Part shown: piece after piece, positions 18,857 through 28,976 of the stretch | Layout of the letters: every line of letters starts with the position of its first letter | How positions within the stretch are numbered: position 1 is the first letter of the stretch | NCBI GenBank assembly: GCA_965250085.1 | Contig: OZ252287.1 | Span: 1,120,001 to 1,184,000, forward strand | Reading direction: 5' to 3' | Length of the DNA: 64,000 bases | Source: Candidatus Altimarinota bacterium | GTDB taxonomy: Bacteria > Patescibacteriota > Gracilibacteria > CAIRYL01 | The notes under the pieces: generated by a model | The model's database searches: none | What the model saw: the letters and a program-made list of their open reading frames with translations, nothing else | What the model was told of the DNA's origin: nothing | Translations under genes and position numbers: made by a program

Positions 18857-19708
18857 TTATTTCTTCACGAATGATTTTTGACCTCCTATGTTTTTCCATG
18901 TCCAGAAAAAGATGGTAGCCGAAAGCGCTAACAGAATTAAAAAGATACGTAGTCCACCAATACTTATCTCACTTCCAAAAGCAAGGAGTGACATCAGGCA
19001 TTCACGAAGTGTAATCGCCAAGGTAAAGAGCATGACAAAACCTGAGACAAAGAGAAGAACAAAATGAAAAATAGCACACGCTTCAGATTGTATCTTCGGC
19101 ATAATTCTTTTTTGTCCATAATATGATGGCAACAAAAAGACTCCCAAAAGTGCTGTGGGGACTACGATACTGATAAAGTTCATCAAAAACTTGAGTCCTG
19201 ATTCATGAGTTTCAAACTGATCTGCAAATCCAAATTTCAGAAGCCAATTGGTCAGATACACCAGAAGAAAAACATCAAGGAGAATCAAAATGCCAGTAGA
19301 GAGAAGATGAAATACATGAGATGTATACAATACGGGACTTTTCACTTCATTCTTCTCGGTATCAAAGAGACTTCTTGGGAGAAATTTTTTCCCAATAACG
19401 AGAAGATATCCCCCTACGAGAAGAAGTATGATTTCTAGTCGCAAATTACTCATGGTCCAAAGCCCTCCTGCATCACCCCCAAATCCGATTTGCTCCAATA
19501 GATCATTTGCAAACAATCCGACTGCCAAAAGTATGGCGAGTATTCCACCCCCCCAAACCTTAAATGAAAACAGAGAGGAAAGAATGCGATTGGGTGATTT
19601 GGCAAGGAGGTATATAGCTGGGAAGAAAACGCCCACGGAACTAATAAAAGCGACCCAAAACAGGAGGGCAAGTATTCCAAAAACGGCTGGGAAGAATGCG
19701 GAGATCAT
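18857..19708 (-). CDS. Multi-pass membrane protein of unknown function
   Basis: About 7 hydrophobic segments; start uncertain (ORF open to 19780). Confidence 0.65.
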   Translation of the reverse strand: MISAFFPAVFGILALLFWVAFISSVGVFFPAIYLLAKSPNRILSSLFSFKVWGGGILAILLAVGLFANDLLEQIGFGGDAGGLWTMSNLRLEIILLLVGGYLLVIGKKFLPRSLFDTEKNEVKSPVLYTSHVFHLLSTGILILLDVFLLVYLTNWLLKFGFADQFETHESGLKFLMNFISIVVPTALLGVFLLPSYYGQKRIMPKIQSEACAIFHFVLLFVSGFVMLFTLAITLRECLMSLLAFGSEISIGGLRIFLILLALSATIFFWTWKNIGGQKSFVKK

Positions 19709-19826
19709 AGAGAAAAGAAAAAATTTATGAGTAAATTCTTTCGGGAGAGTAGCAGAAATGCTTCTTTGAGAGCAATACATGATTTCAGCATCCTCAATGT
19801 CTGAATTTTAGAACTGTAAAAAACTC

Positions 19827-19855
19827 TTGACTTTATATTCTTTCATATCTATATT
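19827..19855 (+). promoter_or_regulatory. trp operon promoter
   Basis: TTGACT-17 nt-TATATT. Confidence 0.75.
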
Positions 19856-19878
19856 TACTAGTGTTCTAGTAAGATAGT
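19855..19878. promoter_or_regulatory. TrpR operator
   Basis: Palindrome TTACTAG-TGTT-CTAGTAA (19855-19872), close to the enteric ACTAG-N-CTAGT operator; TAGT recurs at 8-bp spacing (19859, 19867, 19875). Confidence 0.85.
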
Positions 19879-19880
19879 AT

Positions 19881-20147
19881 ATGAAGAGCTCTCCAGACTT
19901 TATAAATGAATTGGCAAAAGTCATTGCGCATATTCACAATACAAAACGGGCAGAAGAGTTTCTTCTGGGCATATTAACTCCATCAGAGCGGGAAGAAGTG
20001 GCTCGCAGATTGCAAATATTGAAACTGTTAAAGCAAGGACATTCCCAATGGGAAGTAGCAAAAAAATTGGGTGTAGGAATTGCCACAGTGAGCAGAGGAG
20101 CAAAGGAATTGAAATATGGGAATTCAAAATTTCTTAATACTCTTTAA
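19881..20147 (+). CDS. trpR: Trp repressor (TrpR family)
   Basis: LTPSEREEVARR and SQWEVAKKLGVGIATVSRG HTH; first gene of the trp operon. Confidence 0.9.
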   Translation: MKSSPDFINELAKVIAHIHNTKRAEEFLLGILTPSEREEVARRLQILKLLKQGHSQWEVAKKLGVGIATVSRGAKELKYGNSKFLNTL

Positions 20148-20148
20148 A

Positions 20149-20208
20149 ATGAAATCTTCAAACACAAAATTGCAGGCTTGGTGGATAACTTTTTTCGTAC
20201 GGCATTGA
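20149..20208 (+). CDS. trpL: trp leader peptide MKSSNTKLQAWWITFFVRH
   Basis: 19-codon ORF with tandem TGG TGG (20179-20184), 1 nt after the trpR stop; too short for the ORF track. Confidence 0.88.
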   Translation: MKSSNTKLQAWWITFFVRH

Positions 20209-20269
20209 GGTGCCCATTTTTCTGAAACTGTAAAAGTTTGTAAACACCTCATCGCCGAGGTGTTTTTTT
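20201..20269 (+). terminator. trp attenuator with alternative terminator and antiterminator
   Basis: Terminator AAACACCTC-ATCGCC-GAGGTGTTT plus U tract (20242-20269); antiterminator TGAGGTG (20206-20212) with CACCTCA (20245-20251); GGCAT...GTGCC hairpin (20201-20214). Confidence 0.88.
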
Positions 20270-20283
20270 ATTTTTAAAATATA

Positions 20284-21783
20284 ATGATTCAATATAGCAA
20301 AATACACACTGGCATATACGAAGGGTCTGAAGAGATTCCGTATGAGACCGCGCATGAAATATTTTCTCGGTTGTACAGAAATTATGAATTCAAGTTTTTA
20401 CTAGAATCCAAGGACATTTCTCATATCTATGGAAGGCTCAGTCTCATCGGCGTTGATCCCATCTTGAAAATATCTGGAAAAGATGAAAATTTTGAGATTT
20501 CTGTATTACAGGAAAGAGGGAAATCGTATTTGGAACGCATATCGAAAGACGACTTGGCACTTTGTGATCATTGCGAGAGAGGGGAAAATGGTATTACAGG
20601 AAGAATTTCTAAAAAAACTCACGAATTTGACGAAGCAAAACGATCTCAACAAAAAAATATTGCCCAGGTCATCAGAATGGCTTTACAAGGATTAAAACTT
20701 AAAAGGAAGAGCTTTCTTGGCCTCTACGGAGCTCTGAGCTATGACTTTATTCGTCTTTTTGAAGAAATTCCTAATATTTTACCGGAGAACGATGTAAATG
20801 ATTTTACTTTTTTTCTCTATGACACATTTGTCTTCTTTGATCATCTGAAGGAGAAAACAGAAATTATTGCCTTTCGAGGTGATATACAGAGTGCTCAGAA
20901 GGCTATCTCCAAGATCTGTAAACAAGTAAAAGTAAAAAAGAAGCCTTCTTCTTATGAAATCTCAAGAGTGAAATTTTCCCTGAAACAGGATGAATATGAA
21001 AAAATGGTTGAAATCGCAAAGGAGTACACCAAAAAAGGAGAATTGTTTGAAGTCGTCTTTTCAAATATTCTAAACGCTCATTTTAAAGGAGACCCATTTG
21101 CACTGTATCTTGCCTATCGTGAAACAAATCCGTCTCCGTATCTTTTTTATTTTGACTTTGGAAACGAACAACTTGTAGGAGCATCCCCAGAAATGATGGT
21201 GCGTGTGGAAAACAATATCGCCCATCTTCGTCCTATTTCAGGGACAGCTAGAAGGGGTGAAGACGCCATTGAGGATCATGAGAATATGCTTTCTCTTCTC
21301 AGCGATCCCAAAGAGAAGGCCGAACTCGATATGCTTATTGATTTGGGGCGAAACGATCTGAGCAGGATTTGTAAGCCAAATTTAAAAATTAGTGATTATC
21401 GATTTGTTGAAAAATATTCAAAAGTAATGCACACGGTGGCTCATTTGCAGGGTGAATTGAGATCTGGATATATCGCCCTTGACGCTCTCATTGCCTGTCT
21501 TAATGCTGGCACACTTACGGGGGCACCAAAAGTTGCTGCAATGAAGGTAATTGAAAAGCATGAGAAAGAGAGAAGAGGATATTATGGTGGTGCTCTTGGC
21601 TACTTTACCTTCTCAGGCGAAATGGACACTGGGATTATTATTCGTACGGCACACATTCGAAAAAATGCACTGAGATTTCAGGTAGGAGCGACTTTACTCC
21701 ATGATTCTCAGCCAAAGAAAGAATATGAAGAGACGCTGCAGAAGGCACAGGCTTTTTTAAACACATTCGTTCATCAATCTTAA
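20284..21783 (+). CDS. trpE: Anthranilate synthase component I
   Basis: LLES, NPSPY, GASPE, PISGT, DLGRNDL, AGTLTGAPK. Confidence 0.94.
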   Translation: MIQYSKIHTGIYEGSEEIPYETAHEIFSRLYRNYEFKFLLESKDISHIYGRLSLIGVDPILKISGKDENFEISVLQERGKSYLERISKDDLALCDHCERGENGITGRISKKTHEFDEAKRSQQKNIAQVIRMALQGLKLKRKSFLGLYGALSYDFIRLFEEIPNILPENDVNDFTFFLYDTFVFFDHLKEKTEIIAFRGDIQSAQKAISKICKQVKVKKKPSSYEISRVKFSLKQDEYEKMVEIAKEYTKKGELFEVVFSNILNAHFKGDPFALYLAYRETNPSPYLFYFDFGNEQLVGASPEMMVRVENNIAHLRPISGTARRGEDAIEDHENMLSLLSDPKEKAELDMLIDLGRNDLSRICKPNLKISDYRFVEKYSKVMHTVAHLQGELRSGYIALDALIACLNAGTLTGAPKVAAMKVIEKHEKERRGYYGGALGYFTFSGEMDTGIIIRTAHIRKNALRFQVGATLLHDSQPKKEYEETLQKAQAFLNTFVHQS

Positions 21784-21784
21784 T

Positions 21785-22372
21785 ATGTCTCATTATAAAA
21801 ACATTCTCGTTATTGATAACTTTGATTCATTTACCTTTAATTTGGTTGATTATCTTACGCAGCTAAATTGTAAGGTCACAACGCTTCGCAACACTATCAG
21901 TATATCCTCTGTAGCGAAAATTGACCCAGATTTAATTGTTCTTTCTCCTGGTCCATCGGTTCCAAAAAACGCAGGGAATCTTATGGGTATTATTGATAGA
22001 TATCATGATATATATCCAATATTCGGAGTCTGCTTGGGACACGAAGCGCTCATTGAATATTTTGGTGGCACGCTTACATTTACTGAACCAGTTCATGGAA
22101 AAGCTTCTCCCATTCGTCATGATGGAAAGACTATTTTTACCGGACTTGAGCAGAATTTTATGGCAGGTCGATACCATTCTCTCATAGCCGACAAAGTGCC
22201 ATCATGCTTCTGCACTTCAGCAAAATACAAAAATATTGTTATGGGAGTGCGTCATAGAAGCCTGCCAATAGAAGGCGTGCAGTTTCATCCAGAGTCAGTT
22301 CTGACCATGAAAGGTCAAAATGGATTTCATATTATTAAAAATCTTGTTTATGGATACGATAGAATTTCTTAA
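21785..22372 (+). CDS. trpG: Anthranilate synthase component II
   Basis: IDNFDSFTFNL, SPGP, GVCLGH, RYHSL, QFHPES. Confidence 0.95.
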   Translation: MSHYKNILVIDNFDSFTFNLVDYLTQLNCKVTTLRNTISISSVAKIDPDLIVLSPGPSVPKNAGNLMGIIDRYHDIYPIFGVCLGHEALIEYFGGTLTFTEPVHGKASPIRHDGKTIFTGLEQNFMAGRYHSLIADKVPSCFCTSAKYKNIVMGVRHRSLPIEGVQFHPESVLTMKGQNGFHIIKNLVYGYDRIS

Positions 22373-24656
22373 ACGGAGTATCTCCGGTCGGCTTTCCTTG
22401 CATCAGCAAAAGGAATTTTTAGAATCAAAAAAATCACTTACTGCTGAGGAGTTCAGGGATATCGTTGTTTTTTTGCAAAAGGACCTTCCAGAGAAGCGGA
22501 GGTTTTCTGAAGCAATTGATGTTTGTGGCACCGGTGGGTCGGGTCTCCAGAGGATCAACACCTCTACCATTGCTGCTTTTATTTTGGCGTCACTAGGAGT
22601 CAAAGTGGCGAAACATGGGAATAAAGCTGCAAGTGGCCGTTTTGGCAGTTTTGATCTTGTGGAAACACTTGGTATTAATTCTCATAGTTCTGAAACGCTC
22701 TATCATAATCATCATCTTGCGCTTCTTTTTGCTTCGGAGTTTTACCCGGCCATGAAGCATTTCGCGCCAGTCAGGAAAAGTATCGGGAAGCCAACCTTCT
22801 TTAATCTCTTAGGACCACTCTTGAGTCCTGTGCGTGCACAGAAACAAATTATCGGTACTGCGTTTCGAGATAAAATGGAAATCATTGCTCAAACATGCAA
22901 ACTTCTTGGAAAAAAGCATGTTTTTGTGGTTTGTGGGGAAGATGGACTGGATGAAGTGACTCTGACCGGAAAAACATATGTAGTGGAACTCCATAAGAAC
23001 AAAATACAAAAATATATAATTTCTCCAAAAGATTTTGGACTCTCCTCATGTTCTTTCTCTGAAATCAAAGGAGGAACCCCAAAATATAATGTAAAAATGA
23101 CTCAATCTATACTCCAGGGAAAATGTAAAACTAAACATTTGGATCTTGTGCTCATCAATGTTGCTCTTGCGCTTCAGCTCACTGGGAAAGCAGTAAATCT
23201 TAAAGATGGATATCGTTTGGCGAAACAGGCTGCTCAGGAAGGAAAAGCATTCGAGACGCTTCATATCTATCAAGAATATTCTAAAACTCCTCATATTCTT
23301 CAAAAAATCGTTCAACATAAATGTGAGGAATTGGAAAAAAGGAAACTGAAATACTCCTTAGAAAAACTAAAAAAAGAAGCTCCAATCTGCGATAGAAATT
23401 TTATAGCGCGTCTGCAAAGACCAAGATTATCTCTTATTGCCGAAATAAAAAAATATTCTCCCAGCTCGCCAAAAATAGCTTCTGGAAGCTTTTCACCAAC
23501 AAGGATTGCACGACTCTATGAAAAAAATGGTGTTGATGCAATCTCTGTGCTTTGTGATCAAAAATATTTTGGTGGTAGCTTACAGCATCTTCAAAAAGCG
23601 TATGAACATACAAAACATACTCCGATTCTTTGCAAAGATTTTATTATTGATGAATATCAAATCTACGAAGCGAGAAAATATGGTGCTTCCGCAGTGCTTT
23701 TGATTGCAGCAATTTTAAATGAAGATCAGATAAAGAAGTTTCTGAAGGTAGTGGAAAGTCTGAAAATGACGGCTATATGTGAAGTGCATAATCGCGAAGA
23801 ACTTGAAAAAGTACTCAAAACTTCAGCGAAAGCAATTGGCATCAACAATAGAGATTTAAATACTTTTACGACAAGCATGCGGGTAACGAAAAAACTTGCT
23901 CCGCATATACCTGCTGACAAAATTCTCATCTCTGAGAGTGGCATTACTTCAAAAAGTAATATCGATTTACTCCCAGAAAATATTGATGCAGTACTCATAG
24001 GAACATCTTTCATGTCCAGCGAGAATATTTCAGAAAAAATACACAGTCTTTTTCGTTCACAAAAACCACTTTTGAAGATATGTGGTATTCGCACAGAAGA
24101 GGAAGCATATTTTTGTGACGCACTCGGCATAGACCTTATTGGTCTTAATTTTGTCGAAAAAAGCCACAGATCTGTCTCTGTCAAAAAAGCAAATATAATT
24201 TGCGAAAATATTACTCATGCAAAAACAGTTGGAGTTTTTCAAAATCATAAACTGGAAGAAGTAAATAAAATAGCGACTGCGCTTAATCTCGACTACATAC
24301 AGCTTTCCGGCAAAGAGACGCTGTCTTATGTTCAAAAGTGTTGTAAGCCGGTTCTCAAAACTATTCCTCTCAAAACATCAGCAGATATAAAAATAGCTGA
24401 AAAATATTTGCCACATGTGTCTTATGTCATTTTTGATGGCCCCGATCCTGGGAGTGGAAAAATGATGAATACTGATCTTTTGAGAGGTATTTCAGGAAAA
24501 TTCTTTCTGTCGGGAGGAATAAATGCAAACAATATTGGAACAATGATACAAAAATTGCATCCATTGGGAGTTGATATTGCCAGCGGCGCAGAAACAGATT
24601 TAAAAATCGATTTACAAAAAATTTCTTTTCTCTTTCATCACCTTTCACCATGTTAA
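22350..24656 (+). CDS. trpDCF: Trifunctional TrpD-TrpC-TrpF fusion
   Basis: TrpD: DVCGTGGSG, NTST, KHGN, GLDE. TrpC from about 23290: IAEIKKYSPS, KDFIIDEYQI, GINNRDL, SESGI. TrpF from about 24070: KICGI, GSGK, LSGGI, GVDIASG. Confidence 0.92.
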   Translation: MDTIEFLKRSISGRLSLHQQKEFLESKKSLTAEEFRDIVVFLQKDLPEKRRFSEAIDVCGTGGSGLQRINTSTIAAFILASLGVKVAKHGNKAASGRFGSFDLVETLGINSHSSETLYHNHHLALLFASEFYPAMKHFAPVRKSIGKPTFFNLLGPLLSPVRAQKQIIGTAFRDKMEIIAQTCKLLGKKHVFVVCGEDGLDEVTLTGKTYVVELHKNKIQKYIISPKDFGLSSCSFSEIKGGTPKYNVKMTQSILQGKCKTKHLDLVLINVALALQLTGKAVNLKDGYRLAKQAAQEGKAFETLHIYQEYSKTPHILQKIVQHKCEELEKRKLKYSLEKLKKEAPICDRNFIARLQRPRLSLIAEIKKYSPSSPKIASGSFSPTRIARLYEKNGVDAISVLCDQKYFGGSLQHLQKAYEHTKHTPILCKDFIIDEYQIYEARKYGASAVLLIAAILNEDQIKKFLKVVESLKMTAICEVHNREELEKVLKTSAKAIGINNRDLNTFTTSMRVTKKLAPHIPADKILISESGITSKSNIDLLPENIDAVLIGTSFMSSENISEKIHSLFRSQKPLLKICGIRTEEEAYFCDALGIDLIGLNFVEKSHRSVSVKKANIICENITHAKTVGVFQNHKLEEVNKIATALNLDYIQLSGKETLSYVQKCCKPVLKTIPLKTSADIKIAEKYLPHVSYVIFDGPDPGSGKMMNTDLLRGISGKFFLSGGINANNIGTMIQKLHPLGVDIASGAETDLKIDLQKISFLFHHLSPC

Positions 24657-25633
24657 TTGTCATGCAAAACACCGCTTCTCAGAAGCAAGTCGAAGATGTT
24701 GTGAATGCCATCGAAAAACTCAATCTCAAAGCAGAAAAGATTCCGGGTTCTCAGCGTACGGCCATTGGAGTCATTGGAAATAAAGACTATGTTAACGAAG
24801 GAGGTATTCTTAATTTTCCAGGGGTAAAAGAGATAATCCATGTGACCAAAAAATATAAGTTGGTGAGCAGGGAATATAAAAACGAGGATACTCTGGTAAA
24901 AGTGGGGAACACAGTTGTTTTTGGAGGTAAAAAACCCGTCGTTATTGCTGGTCCCTGTTCTATAGAATCTGAGGATCAATTTCTTACCATCGCCAAGACG
25001 GTAAAAAAACTTGGTGGCGATATGCTCAGGGGTGGTGCGTATAAACCAAGAACTTCTCCCTATTCCTTTCAGGGACTCGGAGAAAGTGGTTTACGAATTA
25101 TGAAAAAAGTATCTCAGCAAGTGGGACTTCCGATAGTGAGCGAAATTATTTCTGCCGAGGATATACCACTGTTTCAAAAGTATGTTGATATGGTTCAAAT
25201 TGGCTCTCGAAATATGCACAATTTTGACCTCATTCAAAAAGTTGCCCTTATGGGCAAACCTATTCTTCTCAAGAGAGGGATGTCGGCAATGATGGAGGAG
25301 TTTTTATTGGCTGCAGAATATATTTTGAATGCAGGGAATCCAAATGTTGTTCTTTGTGAAAGAGGAATACGGACTTTTGAAAATTCCACAAGGAATATAC
25401 TTGATCTCAACACTCTCGCACTCATTAGAAAGGAGTCGCATTTGCCGATTATTGCTGATCCAAGTCATGCGGCTGGTCGTTTTGACCTTATCACACCGCT
25501 TGCAAAATCAGCACTTGCAGCCGGTGCACAAGGACTTATTGTTGAAGTCCATAATAACCCAAGAGAAGCTCTTTCTGATGGCGAACAGTCACTCAATTTG
25601 GACACTTTCCATTCCTTTATGAAACAACTATGA
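24650..25633 (+). CDS. aroF: DAHP synthase, class I-beta, with N-terminal regulatory domain
   Basis: IAGPCSIES, RGGAYKPRTSPYSFQG, QIGSRNM, CERGIRTFE, DPSH. Confidence 0.94.
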   Translation: MLIVMQNTASQKQVEDVVNAIEKLNLKAEKIPGSQRTAIGVIGNKDYVNEGGILNFPGVKEIIHVTKKYKLVSREYKNEDTLVKVGNTVVFGGKKPVVIAGPCSIESEDQFLTIAKTVKKLGGDMLRGGAYKPRTSPYSFQGLGESGLRIMKKVSQQVGLPIVSEIISAEDIPLFQKYVDMVQIGSRNMHNFDLIQKVALMGKPILLKRGMSAMMEEFLLAAEYILNAGNPNVVLCERGIRTFENSTRNILDLNTLALIRKESHLPIIADPSHAAGRFDLITPLAKSALAAGAQGLIVEVHNNPREALSDGEQSLNLDTFHSFMKQL

Positions 25634-26826
25634 AATCGCTTAAAAAGTACATATTGAATAGATCTGGACACTTTGGGATATATGGGGGCAGATATATTCC
25701 TGAACTCCTCATGCCCATCATGGAGGAATTGGAGCAGGCTTTTTACGAAAGCATACGAGATCGCGATTTTCTTTCTGATCTCAAAGGTTTGTATACCACT
25801 TTTGTTGGCAGACCTACTCCTTTATATTTTTGTGAGAACCTAACGAAAAAGCTAGGAGGAGCTAAAATCTTTCTCAAAAATGAGGGGCTTGCTCACACCG
25901 GGGCACATAAAATCAATCACTGCACAGGACAGGCGCTCCTGGCAAAAAAACTTAAAAAGAAAAGGATTATTGCAGAAACAGGAGCAGGACAACACGGTTT
26001 AGCTACTGCGACCATTGCAGCAAAATTTGGATTTGATTGCACTATTTATATGGGTGCAAAGGACTATAAAAGGCAACGTCCAAATGTGTTCTGGATGGAA
26101 AGACTCGGAGCGACAGTAGTTCCAGTTACAATTGGCGGCCAAATACTGCGAGATGCAATCAACGAAGCATTGCGGGACTTGATTTCGAACCCGAAAGATA
26201 CTCATTATTTACTGGGTACTGTGTGTGGACCTCATCCATATCCAGTGATGAATGCATATTTTCAAAGTATTGTCGGAAGGGAGATGAAAAAGCAACTTCA
26301 GAAAAAACCTAATTATCTCGTTGCCTGTGTTGGCGGTGGGAGCAATGCCATGGGCATTTTTCATGAGTTTTTGGATGATCAGGATGTCAAAATGATAGCT
26401 GTGGAAGCAGGGGGGAGGAGTTTAAAATCGACAAAGAAAGGATGTGAGCACGCTGCTCGTTTTGAAAAAGGAAAAGTAGGAGTAACTGAAGGGTTTAAAT
26501 CGTATTTTCTCCAAGATAAGCACGGACAGATGCGAGAAACACACAGTATTGCCGCAGGATTGGATTATTCTGGAGTGGGACCTCAACTCGCATATCTCAA
26601 AGATATTGGTCGTATTAAAACTTCGTACGCATTCGATAGAGAAGTGCTCGAAGCATATACACTTTTAGCAAAAGAAGAGGGAGTTCTTGCTGCTCTAGAA
26701 TCCTGCCATGCTGTTGCTGAGGTTATCAAGCTTGCTCCAAAGCTCAATAAAGAAGAAGTTATAGTTTTCAATTGCTCTGGAAGAGGGGATAAGGATTACT
26801 TCATTGTTCGGGATAAATTTTCATAA
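25630..26826 (+). CDS. trpB: Tryptophan synthase beta chain
   Basis: HTGAHKIN, AETGAGQHG, GGGSNA, SIAAGLDY, SGRGDKD. Confidence 0.97.
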   Translation: MKSLKKYILNRSGHFGIYGGRYIPELLMPIMEELEQAFYESIRDRDFLSDLKGLYTTFVGRPTPLYFCENLTKKLGGAKIFLKNEGLAHTGAHKINHCTGQALLAKKLKKKRIIAETGAGQHGLATATIAAKFGFDCTIYMGAKDYKRQRPNVFWMERLGATVVPVTIGGQILRDAINEALRDLISNPKDTHYLLGTVCGPHPYPVMNAYFQSIVGREMKKQLQKKPNYLVACVGGGSNAMGIFHEFLDDQDVKMIAVEAGGRSLKSTKKGCEHAARFEKGKVGVTEGFKSYFLQDKHGQMRETHSIAAGLDYSGVGPQLAYLKDIGRIKTSYAFDREVLEAYTLLAKEEGVLAALESCHAVAEVIKLAPKLNKEEVIVFNCSGRGDKDYFIVRDKFS

Positions 26827-26832
26827 TTCCAA

Positions 26833-27570
26833 ATGAAACTCATGACTCACATCGTCGGCGGATATCCCACTATGAAAGAATGTGAAGCTATAGCACTTAC
26901 TATGGTAGAAGCAGGAGTATCATATTTAGAAATTCAAATTCCTTTTTCCGATCCCATCGCTGATGGCAGAACAATCTTGAAAGCTAATACAAAAGCTTTG
27001 CAAAATGGAATTACTCCTGAGGATTGTTTTAGACTTATGAAGAAGTTAAAACGGCAGACAAATATACCTCTTCTGTTTATGACCTATTACAATATCCCCT
27101 TTCGTTATGGGCTTGAAAAGTTCTGCAAAAAAGCAAAAGAGATAGGGTGTTATGGACTTATAATCCCTGATATTCCTATAGATGAAGAAAAATATGAGAA
27201 TTATCTTTCGATTTGTAAAAAACATAAACTGCACGCCATACAAGTGATTTCTCCTCTTACTCCTGAAGCGAGGTTAAAGAAAATAACAAAAGTCGCATCG
27301 GGGTTTGTGTATTGTGTCTCGTCTTCTGGTACCACAGGGGAAAGAAAGAATTTCTCTCCGAAGTTGGATGAATATCTCAAGAGAGTGCGAAAGCATATAC
27401 ATGTGCCAATAGCTTTAGGATTTGGAATTTCCAGGAAAAGCCATATTGGAGTCATTCAAGAAAAAGTGGATATTGCCATAATTGGGAGCAAATTGATCAA
27501 TCTTTATAACACTTCAAAGGAGAATAAGTTACAAACAATAAAAAGCTTTCTCAAAAAACTAACCTCCTAA
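26833..27570 (+). CDS. trpA: Tryptophan synthase alpha chain
   Basis: EIQIPFSDPIADG, MTYYN, GTTG, GFGIS. Confidence 0.96.
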   Translation: MKLMTHIVGGYPTMKECEAIALTMVEAGVSYLEIQIPFSDPIADGRTILKANTKALQNGITPEDCFRLMKKLKRQTNIPLLFMTYYNIPFRYGLEKFCKKAKEIGCYGLIIPDIPIDEEKYENYLSICKKHKLHAIQVISPLTPEARLKKITKVASGFVYCVSSSGTTGERKNFSPKLDEYLKRVRKHIHVPIALGFGISRKSHIGVIQEKVDIAIIGSKLINLYNTSKENKLQTIKSFLKKLTS

Positions 27571-27619
27571 AAAGAAAAAATCTGAACTCAAAATCAGTAC
27601 AATTTCTACGAGAATAGCC

Positions 27620-27648
27620 TTGACTCTCACTACCTTCATCAGTAAACT
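27620..27648 (+). promoter_or_regulatory. Promoter of the rplC-led ribosomal protein operon
   Basis: TTGACT-17 nt-TAAACT. Confidence 0.65.
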
Positions 27649-27771
27649 CCCTTGGCGTTTTGATCTTGCGCAATACATTCGGGTTCAAGTCCTTTTGTTT
27701 TCTAAAAGGGCGAAACAGGGTTTTTATCCTCTCAGAATCTGAATTTTATTTTCAAGCTCTCAAAGACCTTT

Positions 27772-28347
27772 ATGATTGGAATACTTGGAAAAAAACTCGG
27801 TATGTCTCAGTTGATCACAGAAGAGGGACACATGGTTCCTGTGACGTATCTTGTGTGCGAACCCAATACTGTCCATCAAAAAAAAACAGAAGATAAAGAT
27901 GGGTATAGTGCTGTTGTTTTAGGCGCTGGTCCACTCAAAAAGCCAACGAAGACAAAAAAGTTCAAGAAATTGAAAGAATTTAAATGCGACGAAGGAGAAT
28001 ATAAAGAAAAAGATAAGATAAAAGTTGATATCTTTGAACCAAGTGATCTTGTTCGTATCTGCGGAGTATCAAAAGGAAAAGGATTTCAGGGAAGAGTAAG
28101 AAGGCATAATGCTCGTGTTTCACGTCGAACACATGGAACAAAATACACTCGCCATGGATCAACTGGACAATGTGCTATGCCAGGACGAACAAAAAAGGGA
28201 ACGAAGATGCCTGGTCGAATGGGGTGTGACACAGTCACTCTTAGAAACAGACCCATTATGATGGTGGATGTAAAACGAAATATCTTGGCGATCAAAGGAT
28301 CAGTGCCAGGGGCTATTAATTCTCTTGTTGTTATTGAAAAGCAATGA
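27772..28347 (+). CDS. rplC: 50S ribosomal protein L3
   Basis: GKKLGMSQ, SKGKGFQG, KGTKMPGRMG, KGSVPG. Confidence 0.96.
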   Translation: MIGILGKKLGMSQLITEEGHMVPVTYLVCEPNTVHQKKTEDKDGYSAVVLGAGPLKKPTKTKKFKKLKEFKCDEGEYKEKDKIKVDIFEPSDLVRICGVSKGKGFQGRVRRHNARVSRRTHGTKYTRHGSTGQCAMPGRTKKGTKMPGRMGCDTVTLRNRPIMMVDVKRNILAIKGSVPGAINSLVVIEKQ

Positions 28348-28976
28348 TAAAAGCAGCACTTTATTCACAGGCTGGAAAAAAGAAATCGGATGTTACTTTG
28401 AAAAAAGAGCTGTTTGAAGCTTCCATCAAAGAAGATCTCATGCACTTGGCTTATGTGCGACAGATATCTAATGCACGTACTGACACTGCATTCTCAAAAA
28501 CCAGAGGAGAAGTTGTAGGAGGAGGACGAAAACCGTATCGACAAAAAGGGACAGGACGTGCTCGGCAAGGCTCAAAAAGTAGTCCTATTCTTCGAGGAGG
28601 AGGGGTAGTGTTCGGTCCTCGTGCGAATAGAAACTACACAAAAAATATGCCAAAAAAACAAAGACGTGCAGCACTTCTCTCTGCACTGTCTCTCAAGGCA
28701 CAAGGAGAGGAAATCATGATTCTTGATGAGTTCAAAAATGACAAACCCAAAACAAAAATCTTTGCCAAGATGCTTTCAGATTTGAAAGTGCAGAGAAAAG
28801 TGCTGGTGGTCACCGCAGAATCAAACAGTGTACTTGAAAAAAGTGCAGAAAATCTGCCAAGTGTCCGTGTTTTGAGAGTAGAGTATCTCAATATTCGAGA
28901 CTTACTCTGGGCTGACACGGTATTGTTTCTCGAACCAGCTCTCAAAAAAGCAGAAGAAATATTTACCAAAGCATAG
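28344..28976 (+). CDS. rplD: 50S ribosomal protein L4
   Basis: KTRGEVVGGGRKPYRQKGTGRARQGS. Confidence 0.97.
   Translation: MIKAALYSQAGKKKSDVTLKKELFEASIKEDLMHLAYVRQISNARTDTAFSKTRGEVVGGGRKPYRQKGTGRARQGSKSSPILRGGGVVFGPRANRNYTKNMPKKQRRAALLSALSLKAQGEEIMILDEFKNDKPKTKIFAKMLSDLKVQRKVLVVTAESNSVLEKSAENLPSVRVLRVEYLNIRDLLWADTVLFLEPALKKAEEIFTKA

Follow-up and report, generated by a model that had tools for sequence, protein, structure and literature searches.

The tryptophan operon in a 64-kb stretch (the window) of the genome of an uncultivated, ultra-small member of the Patescibacteria is very probably governed by a functional TrpR operator and a ribosome-mediated Trp attenuator. From the sequence and its relatives, the probability of this reading is put at about 85%. 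The locus runs in the order promoter/operator, trpR, 1 nt, leader ORF, terminator, 18 nt, and trpE. It is best explained as one transcription unit, trpR-leader-trpEG(DCF)-aroG-trpBA, under two layers of tryptophan control. Dual control of this kind, by an operator and by a Trp-Trp attenuator located behind trpR, had been proposed from the DNA letters of the window, and the comparative evidence now supports that proposal. Every element of the original prediction was found at its predicted position, and the recurrence of these elements in related sequences argues that they are not a product of chance. The layout appears to combine the two devices of E. coli with a mini-gene placed directly behind the repressor gene, and it is common to dozens of related sequences. 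Attenuation itself is a textbook mechanism; what is new is that, in Patescibacteria, the leader is coupled to the repressor gene. A literature search outside subscription journals gave, among its top-ranked matches, no report of a Trp attenuator in CPR, Patescibacteria, Peregrinibacteria, or Peribacteria.

The genome is a single contig of 1.37 Mb that is 97% complete by marker genes. Of the sequencing runs listed as containing positions 19000-23000, four from one study do so in the form of contigs, and none is an RNA run. The closest TrpE loci come from metagenome-assembled genomes titled Patescibacteria, Peregrinibacteria, or Gracilibacteria, in agreement with the earlier description of the genome as CPR-like. 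With their tiny genomes, Patescibacteria (CPR) are usually portrayed as poor in regulators and dependent on others for their building blocks. A conserved ribosome-sensed attenuator would imply that transcription and translation are physically coupled in CPR cells and that these cells sense charged tRNA-Trp.

In the proposed mechanism, the 19-codon leader would be translated by a ribosome that most likely comes over from the trpR stop codon, 1 nt upstream. When charged tRNA-Trp is present, this ribosome would reach the TGA at 20206 and cover the antiterminator arm (20200-20212). With the arm covered, the terminator (20242-20265) would form, and transcription would end 18 nt before trpE. When tRNA-Trp is scarce, the ribosome would stall at 20179-20184 with its front edge at about 20194, leaving the arm free. 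The free arm would then pair with 20245-20257 before the 3' arm of the terminator is made, and the polymerase would read into trpE. Transcripts ended by the attenuator would still encode TrpR.

The comparative part of this argument relies on a set of related loci. A metagenome scan with the TrpR alignment added 80 loci, giving 88 including the window. Four were dropped because they had less than 200 nt of downstream sequence, which left 84 from metagenomes and from genomes of relatives. Because they share ancestry and some occur in more than one collection, the counts given below overstate their independence; for example, the leaders of L147 and L149 and those of L037, L085, and L155 are identical or nearly so.

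A sigma-70-type promoter of the trpR-trp operon lies on the forward strand at 19827-19855 and matches 10 of 12 positions, with the -35 box TTGACT (19827-19832), a 17-nt spacer, and the -10 box TATATT (19850-19855). It is one of two 10-of-12 promoter-like sites, joint best in a scan of 9.5 kb (19000-28500) in which such sites were overall not enriched (19 found, 22.9 expected). TTGAC is present at most 90 nt upstream of trpR in 65 of the 84 related loci. The same scan found no promoter-like site between the terminator and trpE, where the 18 nt separating the terminator end from the trpE start leave no room for a separate promoter.

Adjoining the -10 box and spanning the expected transcription start is a TrpR operator-like element (19855-19877, no strand assigned), identified by its palindrome, its CTAG spacing, and its counterparts in related loci. 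The palindrome (19855-19872) contains CTAG at 19858 and 19866, and a third element, ATAG, follows at 19874 with the same 8-nt period. Inverted CTAG-centred half-sites 8 nt apart over the promoter are of the E. coli trpO type, and we take the CTAG-N4-CTAG element to resemble the E. coli trp operator consensus. The motif ACTAG-N4-CTAGT occurs once in the 64 kb, at 19857-19870; taken in the window alone, it is not significant because 0.83 sites with up to one mismatch are expected by chance. Among relatives, 36 of the 84 loci have CTAG-N4-[CA]TAG in the 60 nt upstream of trpR, compared with 0.3 in shuffled sequences and none of 71 control stretches, and the motif usually overlaps or follows a TTGAC-type promoter. 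The promoter TTGACT-17-TATATT with its overlapping palindrome is thus as originally described, and the recurrence in relatives substantiates the putative TrpR operator. Based on sequence likeness, Trp-bound TrpR would bind CTAG-N4-CTAG-N4-ATAG at the -10 box and start site. Such binding would shut the promoter that also makes TrpR, which would amount to autoregulation.

The trpR gene (19881-20147, forward strand) encodes 88 aa with a TrpR repressor domain (PF01371, E 5.9e-21; 74.8 bits against a cut-off of 27) and a conserved helix-turn-helix. The helix-turn-helix stretch aligns to E. coli TrpR chains at E about 3e-7. In NCBIfam, the protein scores 58.8 bits with TIGR01321, below the equivalog cut-off of 67.25, and 37.6 with the YerC/YecD model. 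A second TrpR-family gene elsewhere in this genome (G000:C1:331457-331705) encodes a YerC/YecD-type protein (78.9 bits), and most genomes of the same family have a YerC/YecD-type match only. TrpR-family matches in the same-family genomes are weak, at E 1.8e-6 or weaker in 7 of 11 genomes, and therefore there is no close orthologous leader for a base-by-base comparison.

The trpL-like leader ORF (20149-20208, forward strand) starts 1 nt past the trpR stop codon and comprises 19 codons followed by the TGA stop (20206-20208). Two tandem Trp codons, TGG TGG (20179-20184, forward strand), are the proposed sensor, and WW or WWW is kept in the leaders of relatives. In carrying adjacent Trp codons on a short ORF ahead of trp genes, the leader corresponds to the E. 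coli trpL type. Mini-ORFs with WW (8-45 codons, ATG start at -30 to +50 from the trpR stop) are present in 23 of the 84 loci, or in 30 with W-x-W, whereas the reverse strand gave one and 100 dinucleotide shuffles gave a mean of 0.22 and a maximum of 2. The unannotated WW ORF that had been noticed 1 nt after trpR is therefore well supported by its conservation. Outside the W cluster, the leader peptides listed for relatives look dissimilar. Not all relatives have the device, as 54 of the 84 loci have no W-W leader. In the window, the leader reading frame can be extended upstream to an ATG at 20116, which was judged a less likely start since relatives start the leader at the trpR stop. The use of TGA as an amino-acid codon, as in some Gracilibacteria, was rejected as well. 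TGA closes 11 of the 55 window ORFs with at least 120 aa, among them the trpB-overlapping gene for DAHP synthase, and hence it is a genuine stop codon here.

The original prediction had argued from the lack of a Shine-Dalgarno (SD) site that the leader is loaded by reinitiation from trpR. The leader indeed has no SD, but this argument is empty. An SD-like motif (GGAG, GAGG, or AGGA at -20 to -4) precedes only 3 of the 55 window ORFs of 120 aa or more, which makes its absence from the leader uninformative. The coupling to trpR is nevertheless upheld by gene arrangement. In 21 of 30 relatives, a count without a control set, the start codon of the leader overlaps the end of trpR, as ATGA in 10 of them. 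In four of the 30, the window among them, leader and trpR are separated by 0-5 nt. From the conserved start/stop overlap, hand-over of the ribosome from trpR to the leader is the most likely reading. Because almost no window gene has an SD site, the leader would need SD-free loading. Additionally, the -10 box is only 6-12 nt from the trpR ATG in many relatives, a distance that suggests leaderless or near-leaderless mRNAs.

Between the leader and the first structural gene lies an intrinsic terminator (20242-20275, forward strand). Its 9-pair stem (20242-20250 with 20257-20265) encloses a 6-nt loop, has an energy of -12.2 kcal/mol, and is followed by a T tract (7-T run) to 20269 and then a further T run. 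The stem is the longest, at 9 pairs, among the nine terminator-like sites listed for the 9.5 kb scanned, in which 6.4 were expected. The antiterminator 5' arm (20200-20212, forward strand) spans the last two sense codons of the leader, its stop codon, and 4 nt beyond. Its partner, the 3' arm (20245-20257, forward strand), consists of most of the terminator 5' arm, the loop, and the first base of the terminator 3' arm. Both of the mutually exclusive pairings proposed earlier, a terminator and a 7-pair antiterminator (20206-20212 with 20245-20251), are present. The antiterminator, however, is longer than had been proposed, as pairing of 20200-20203 with 20254-20257 extends it to a 4+7-pair helix (20200-20212/20245-20257). 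The bare duplex of the two arms has an energy of -19.4 kcal/mol and a z score of -5.9, a stability reached by none of 200 shuffles, and the cognate arm ranks 1 of 26.

With its inner stems, the antiterminator has an energy of -19.3 kcal/mol, compared with -20.7 kcal/mol for a terminator conformer that comprises the terminator, a local hairpin (20201-20214), and a small stem. These energies are nearly equal, so the outcome would be kinetic and decided co-transcriptionally. Ribosome positions were modelled by masking, with footprint sizes assumed from E. coli. When positions 20194 and below are masked, as by a ribosome with the second Trp codon in the A site, and RNA has been made to 20256, the lowest-energy fold is the antiterminator. 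When positions 20218 and below are masked, as by a ribosome at the stop codon, only the terminator is predicted. The antiterminator arm begins 14 nt after the last Trp codon. The masked folds, given E. coli footprints, are thus consistent with the ribosome geometry that had been envisaged, in which stalling at WW frees the arm and arrival at the stop codon covers it. In these models, the antiterminator excludes the terminator and is exposed or covered by the ribosome as attenuation requires. Folding of the leader region had been suggested as a check; taken over its whole 144 nt, the fold is unexceptional in stability (z -1.18; matched by 27 of 200 shuffles).

The leader region has no E. coli-style 1:2 pause or anti-antiterminator hairpin; only the local hairpin of 5 pairs (20201-20214, -5.9 kcal/mol) is present. 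For nascent RNA that is free and not translated, the predicted fold is the antiterminator. Termination would consequently depend wholly on translation of the putative leader. The local hairpin is followed by a T run (20217-20221), and this unit (20201-20221, forward strand), also flagged as terminator-like in the scan, may be a pause or anti-antiterminator element. The T run after the leader stop may itself act as a polymerase pause site or mimic the terminator 3' arm and T tract. Of 26 loci, 14 have a run of at least 5 T separating leader stop and terminator, compared with 4.9 in mononucleotide shuffles (maximum 12 in 500). No Rfam family reached its gathering score in the window. Between 19700 and 20400, hits at E up to 10 were limited to four weak, unrelated matches, and the Trp leader, which we take to be RF00513 (Trp_leader), was not among them. 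The device would work like the E. coli system, yet by sequence it is not a member of the Rfam Trp leader family.

The pairing found in the window recurs in the related loci. A terminator is located at most 110 nt from the leader stop in 26 of the 30 W-leader loci (no control set). For 19 of these 26, pairing of the 3' part of the leader with the 5' arm and loop of the terminator reaches z < -1.64 (200 shuffles per locus). A distance of 11-17 nt from the last W codon to the start of the antiterminator arm is likewise seen in 19 of 26, again without a control set. When arms were exchanged between loci, cognate pairings had a mean energy of -15.0 kcal/mol and non-cognate pairings -8.3 kcal/mol. 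Among the 26 loci, the cognate arm is the best partner in 19 and one of the three best in 24, and none of 10000 permutations reached the observed mean. This covariation-type test shows, at the level of predicted pairing, that the end of each leader tracks its own terminator. Covariation here rests on duplex tests, namely the per-locus z score and the comparison of cognate with non-cognate arms. The conserved WW peptide and the covarying stems that were to be sought in relatives have therefore both been found.

The leader has a patchy distribution. Among the 30 best TrpR loci within the class, it is present in several families and absent from other members of the same families. The closest trpE loci (L033-L039, 60-69% TrpE identity) have a spacer of 65-150 nt, and four of these seven contain a W-rich mini-ORF and a terminator. 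L059, the nearest relative when TrpE is compared (83% identity across the C-terminal 150 residues), breaks off within trpE, and its leader region is outside the sequence. In a sister family of the same order, trpE directly follows trpR, with an ATGA overlap in five of eight loci and no trpR-trpE spacer in any of the eight. One sister-family locus, L004 (G015:C1:689632-689889), has a single 599-aa open frame of TrpR plus TrpE, an apparent repressor-enzyme fusion; elsewhere in this family, the overlap of trpE with the trpR stop is 4 nt. A set of 19 trpE loci from farther away (L040-L058, titled mostly Bacteroidota or Chitinophagales) has one W-x-W mini-ORF before trpE, in L040. Thus, the leader is not a general feature of trpR-trpE loci.

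Other variants concern the trpR frame and the downstream genes. In L034 (2626-2928), L039 (498-791), and L038 (2654-2932), the trpR frame is extended by 10-20 codons that include a single Trp codon, and a terminator follows. The extensions in L039 and L034 look like the ends of leaders in neighbouring loci, which would fit a fusion of trpR with the leader. Four metagenome loci (L077, L082, L083, and L121) display a compact trpR-trpB salvage form in which trpB begins about 35-55 nt after trpR and there is no leader.

The elements of the locus can also be read in other ways. In the simplest of these, the hairpin would be a plain trpR terminator, the WW ORF a chance frame, and trpE would be expressed by leaky read-through or from its own start. 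The ordinary overall fold of the leader (z -1.18) fits this account, as does the frequency of promoter-like and terminator-like sites in AT-rich DNA (19 against 22.9 and 9 against 6.4 expected). The sister family, moreover, joins trpR and trpE without a spacer. However, an own start would have to fit into the 18 nt from the T tract to the trpE ATG, in which no promoter-like site was detected. A chance frame is difficult to reconcile with WW ORFs at the trpR stop in 23 of 84 loci compared with 0.22 in shuffles, and a plain terminator with the complementarity of the leader 3' end to it. This account is therefore very unlikely. The leader ORF could instead act on the translation of TrpR or TrpE, or through a trans-acting peptide, with the terminator being constitutive. 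Its position, overlapping or adjoining trpR in most relatives, would suit such a role, and a trans-acting trpL peptide and attenuator RNA have been described for Sinorhizobium, as far as the accessible text of that source goes. Nonetheless, the leader peptides of relatives look alike only in the W cluster, covariation links the RNA arms to the terminators, and the terminator hairpin leaves the trpE start uncovered. The chance that this account is correct is the slimmest of those considered.

Alternatively, a real switch might respond not to leader translation but to a trans factor, for which an RNA-binding protein, uncharged tRNA, or a small molecule would be candidates. The absence of a 1:2 element and the predicted default of untranslated RNA to the antiterminator are features of factor-driven switches, and the conserved T run after the arm could be accommodated in the same way. 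This possibility is improbable, though slightly less so than the preceding two. No match to an Rfam family, T-box, or riboswitch was obtained. A trans factor also gives no role to tandem Trp codons that keep a constant spacing to the arm (11-17 nt in 19 of 26 loci), to an arm that spans the stop codon, or to a leader start that is tied to the trpR stop. Each of these features is compatible with leader translation as the sensing step, and ribosome-mediated attenuation together with TrpR repression remains the preferred reading.

Attenuation in the window resembles that in E. coli, where the trp operon combines TrpR/trpO repression with trpL leader-peptide attenuation in the textbook manner (PMC7755916, accessible text). 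Both systems have an operator with CTAG motifs 8 nt apart over the promoter, a short leader with two adjacent Trp codons, and a terminator with an overlapping antiterminator before trpE. In both, a ribosome at the leader stop codon would cover the antiterminator arm. The two systems differ in several respects. Unlike in E. coli, trpR in the window is inside the operon, upstream of the leader, and so would be autoregulated and made even from attenuated transcripts. The window leader starts 1 nt after the trpR stop without an SD, has a 5-pair local hairpin in place of the 1:2 pause/anti-antiterminator hairpin, and lacks an Rfam Trp_leader match. Its predicted default in the absence of translation is read-through.

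The gene order finds a closer parallel in Chlamydia. C. trachomatis and C. felis have trpR, an intergenic region with a putative trpL, and trpBA (PMC7755916, PMC3937554). The window shares with them the succession of repressor gene, candidate Trp leader, and structural genes, and many of its metagenome relatives share the trpR-leader-trpB order. A trpR-trpL order in Chlamydiae had been invoked in the original prediction. Such an order has been proposed, but in the accessible text of both sources it is a prediction only, called atypical or unvalidated by the authors (PMC7755916, PMC3937554). The C. trachomatis trpL candidate has 59 codons with non-adjacent Trp codons and is described by its authors as unvalidated and a poor attenuator (PMC7755916). 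For the tandem-W candidate of C. felis, the accessible text of the source reports no attenuator structure (PMC3937554). In contrast, the window leader has 19 codons, WW, and a co-varying terminator and antiterminator. The window could therefore serve as the canonical example of the repressor gene-leader-structural genes order, which is otherwise only an unvalidated prediction for Chlamydia in the available portions of these reports (PMC7755916, PMC3937554).

Simkania negevensis has a compact trp operon, trpR/trpE/trpG/.../aroA (PMC3937554). Like the operon in the window, it has trpR as its first gene, encodes the complete pathway, and includes a gene for a class I-beta DAHP synthase. However, the Simkania trpR-trpE gap is 18 nt, and no TrpL is given in the accessible text (PMC3937554). 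The Simkania layout resembles that of the sister-family loci, in which trpE overlaps trpR, and not that of the window.

Taken jointly, the promoter/operator, trpR, the overlapping Trp leader, and the terminator may constitute a translationally coupled, portable cassette. This reading is tentative and is held at somewhat less than even odds. A ribosome finishing trpR would pass to the leader, so that one would always be present behind the polymerase, which would replace the pause hairpin. Without a trpR-derived ribosome, the switch would default to ON. Depending on the locus, the arrangement precedes trpE, trpB, or trpA. Accordingly conceived, the cassette would have been placed before different cargo in many Patescibacteria lineages, from full trpE operons to trpB(A) salvage genes. 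In the fused forms, the trpR reading frame itself would hold the sensing Trp codon. Such a cassette would mark downstream genes of unknown role as tryptophan-regulated.

The controlled genes occupy 20284-27570 on the forward strand and were identified with Pfam and NCBIfam. They are trpE (20284-21783), trpG (21785-22372), a fused trpD-trpC-trpF (22320-24656), a DAHP synthase gene (24650-25633), trpB (25630-26826), and trpA (26833-27570), all on the forward strand. The fusion joins trpD, trpC, and trpF in one frame of 778 aa, and its true start is uncertain because the listed start overlaps trpG by 53 nt. The DAHP synthase, encoded between the fusion and trpB, is of class I-beta with a ferredoxin-like N-domain, and its presence in the operon is a likeness to Simkania (PMC3937554). 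Genes for ribosomal proteins L3 and L4 follow 200 nt after the trp operon (27570-27772). No S10 gene was seen between the operon and L3/L4, and the L3 protein has only 191 aa with a partial Pfam match. A promoter-like site is present at 27620-27648.
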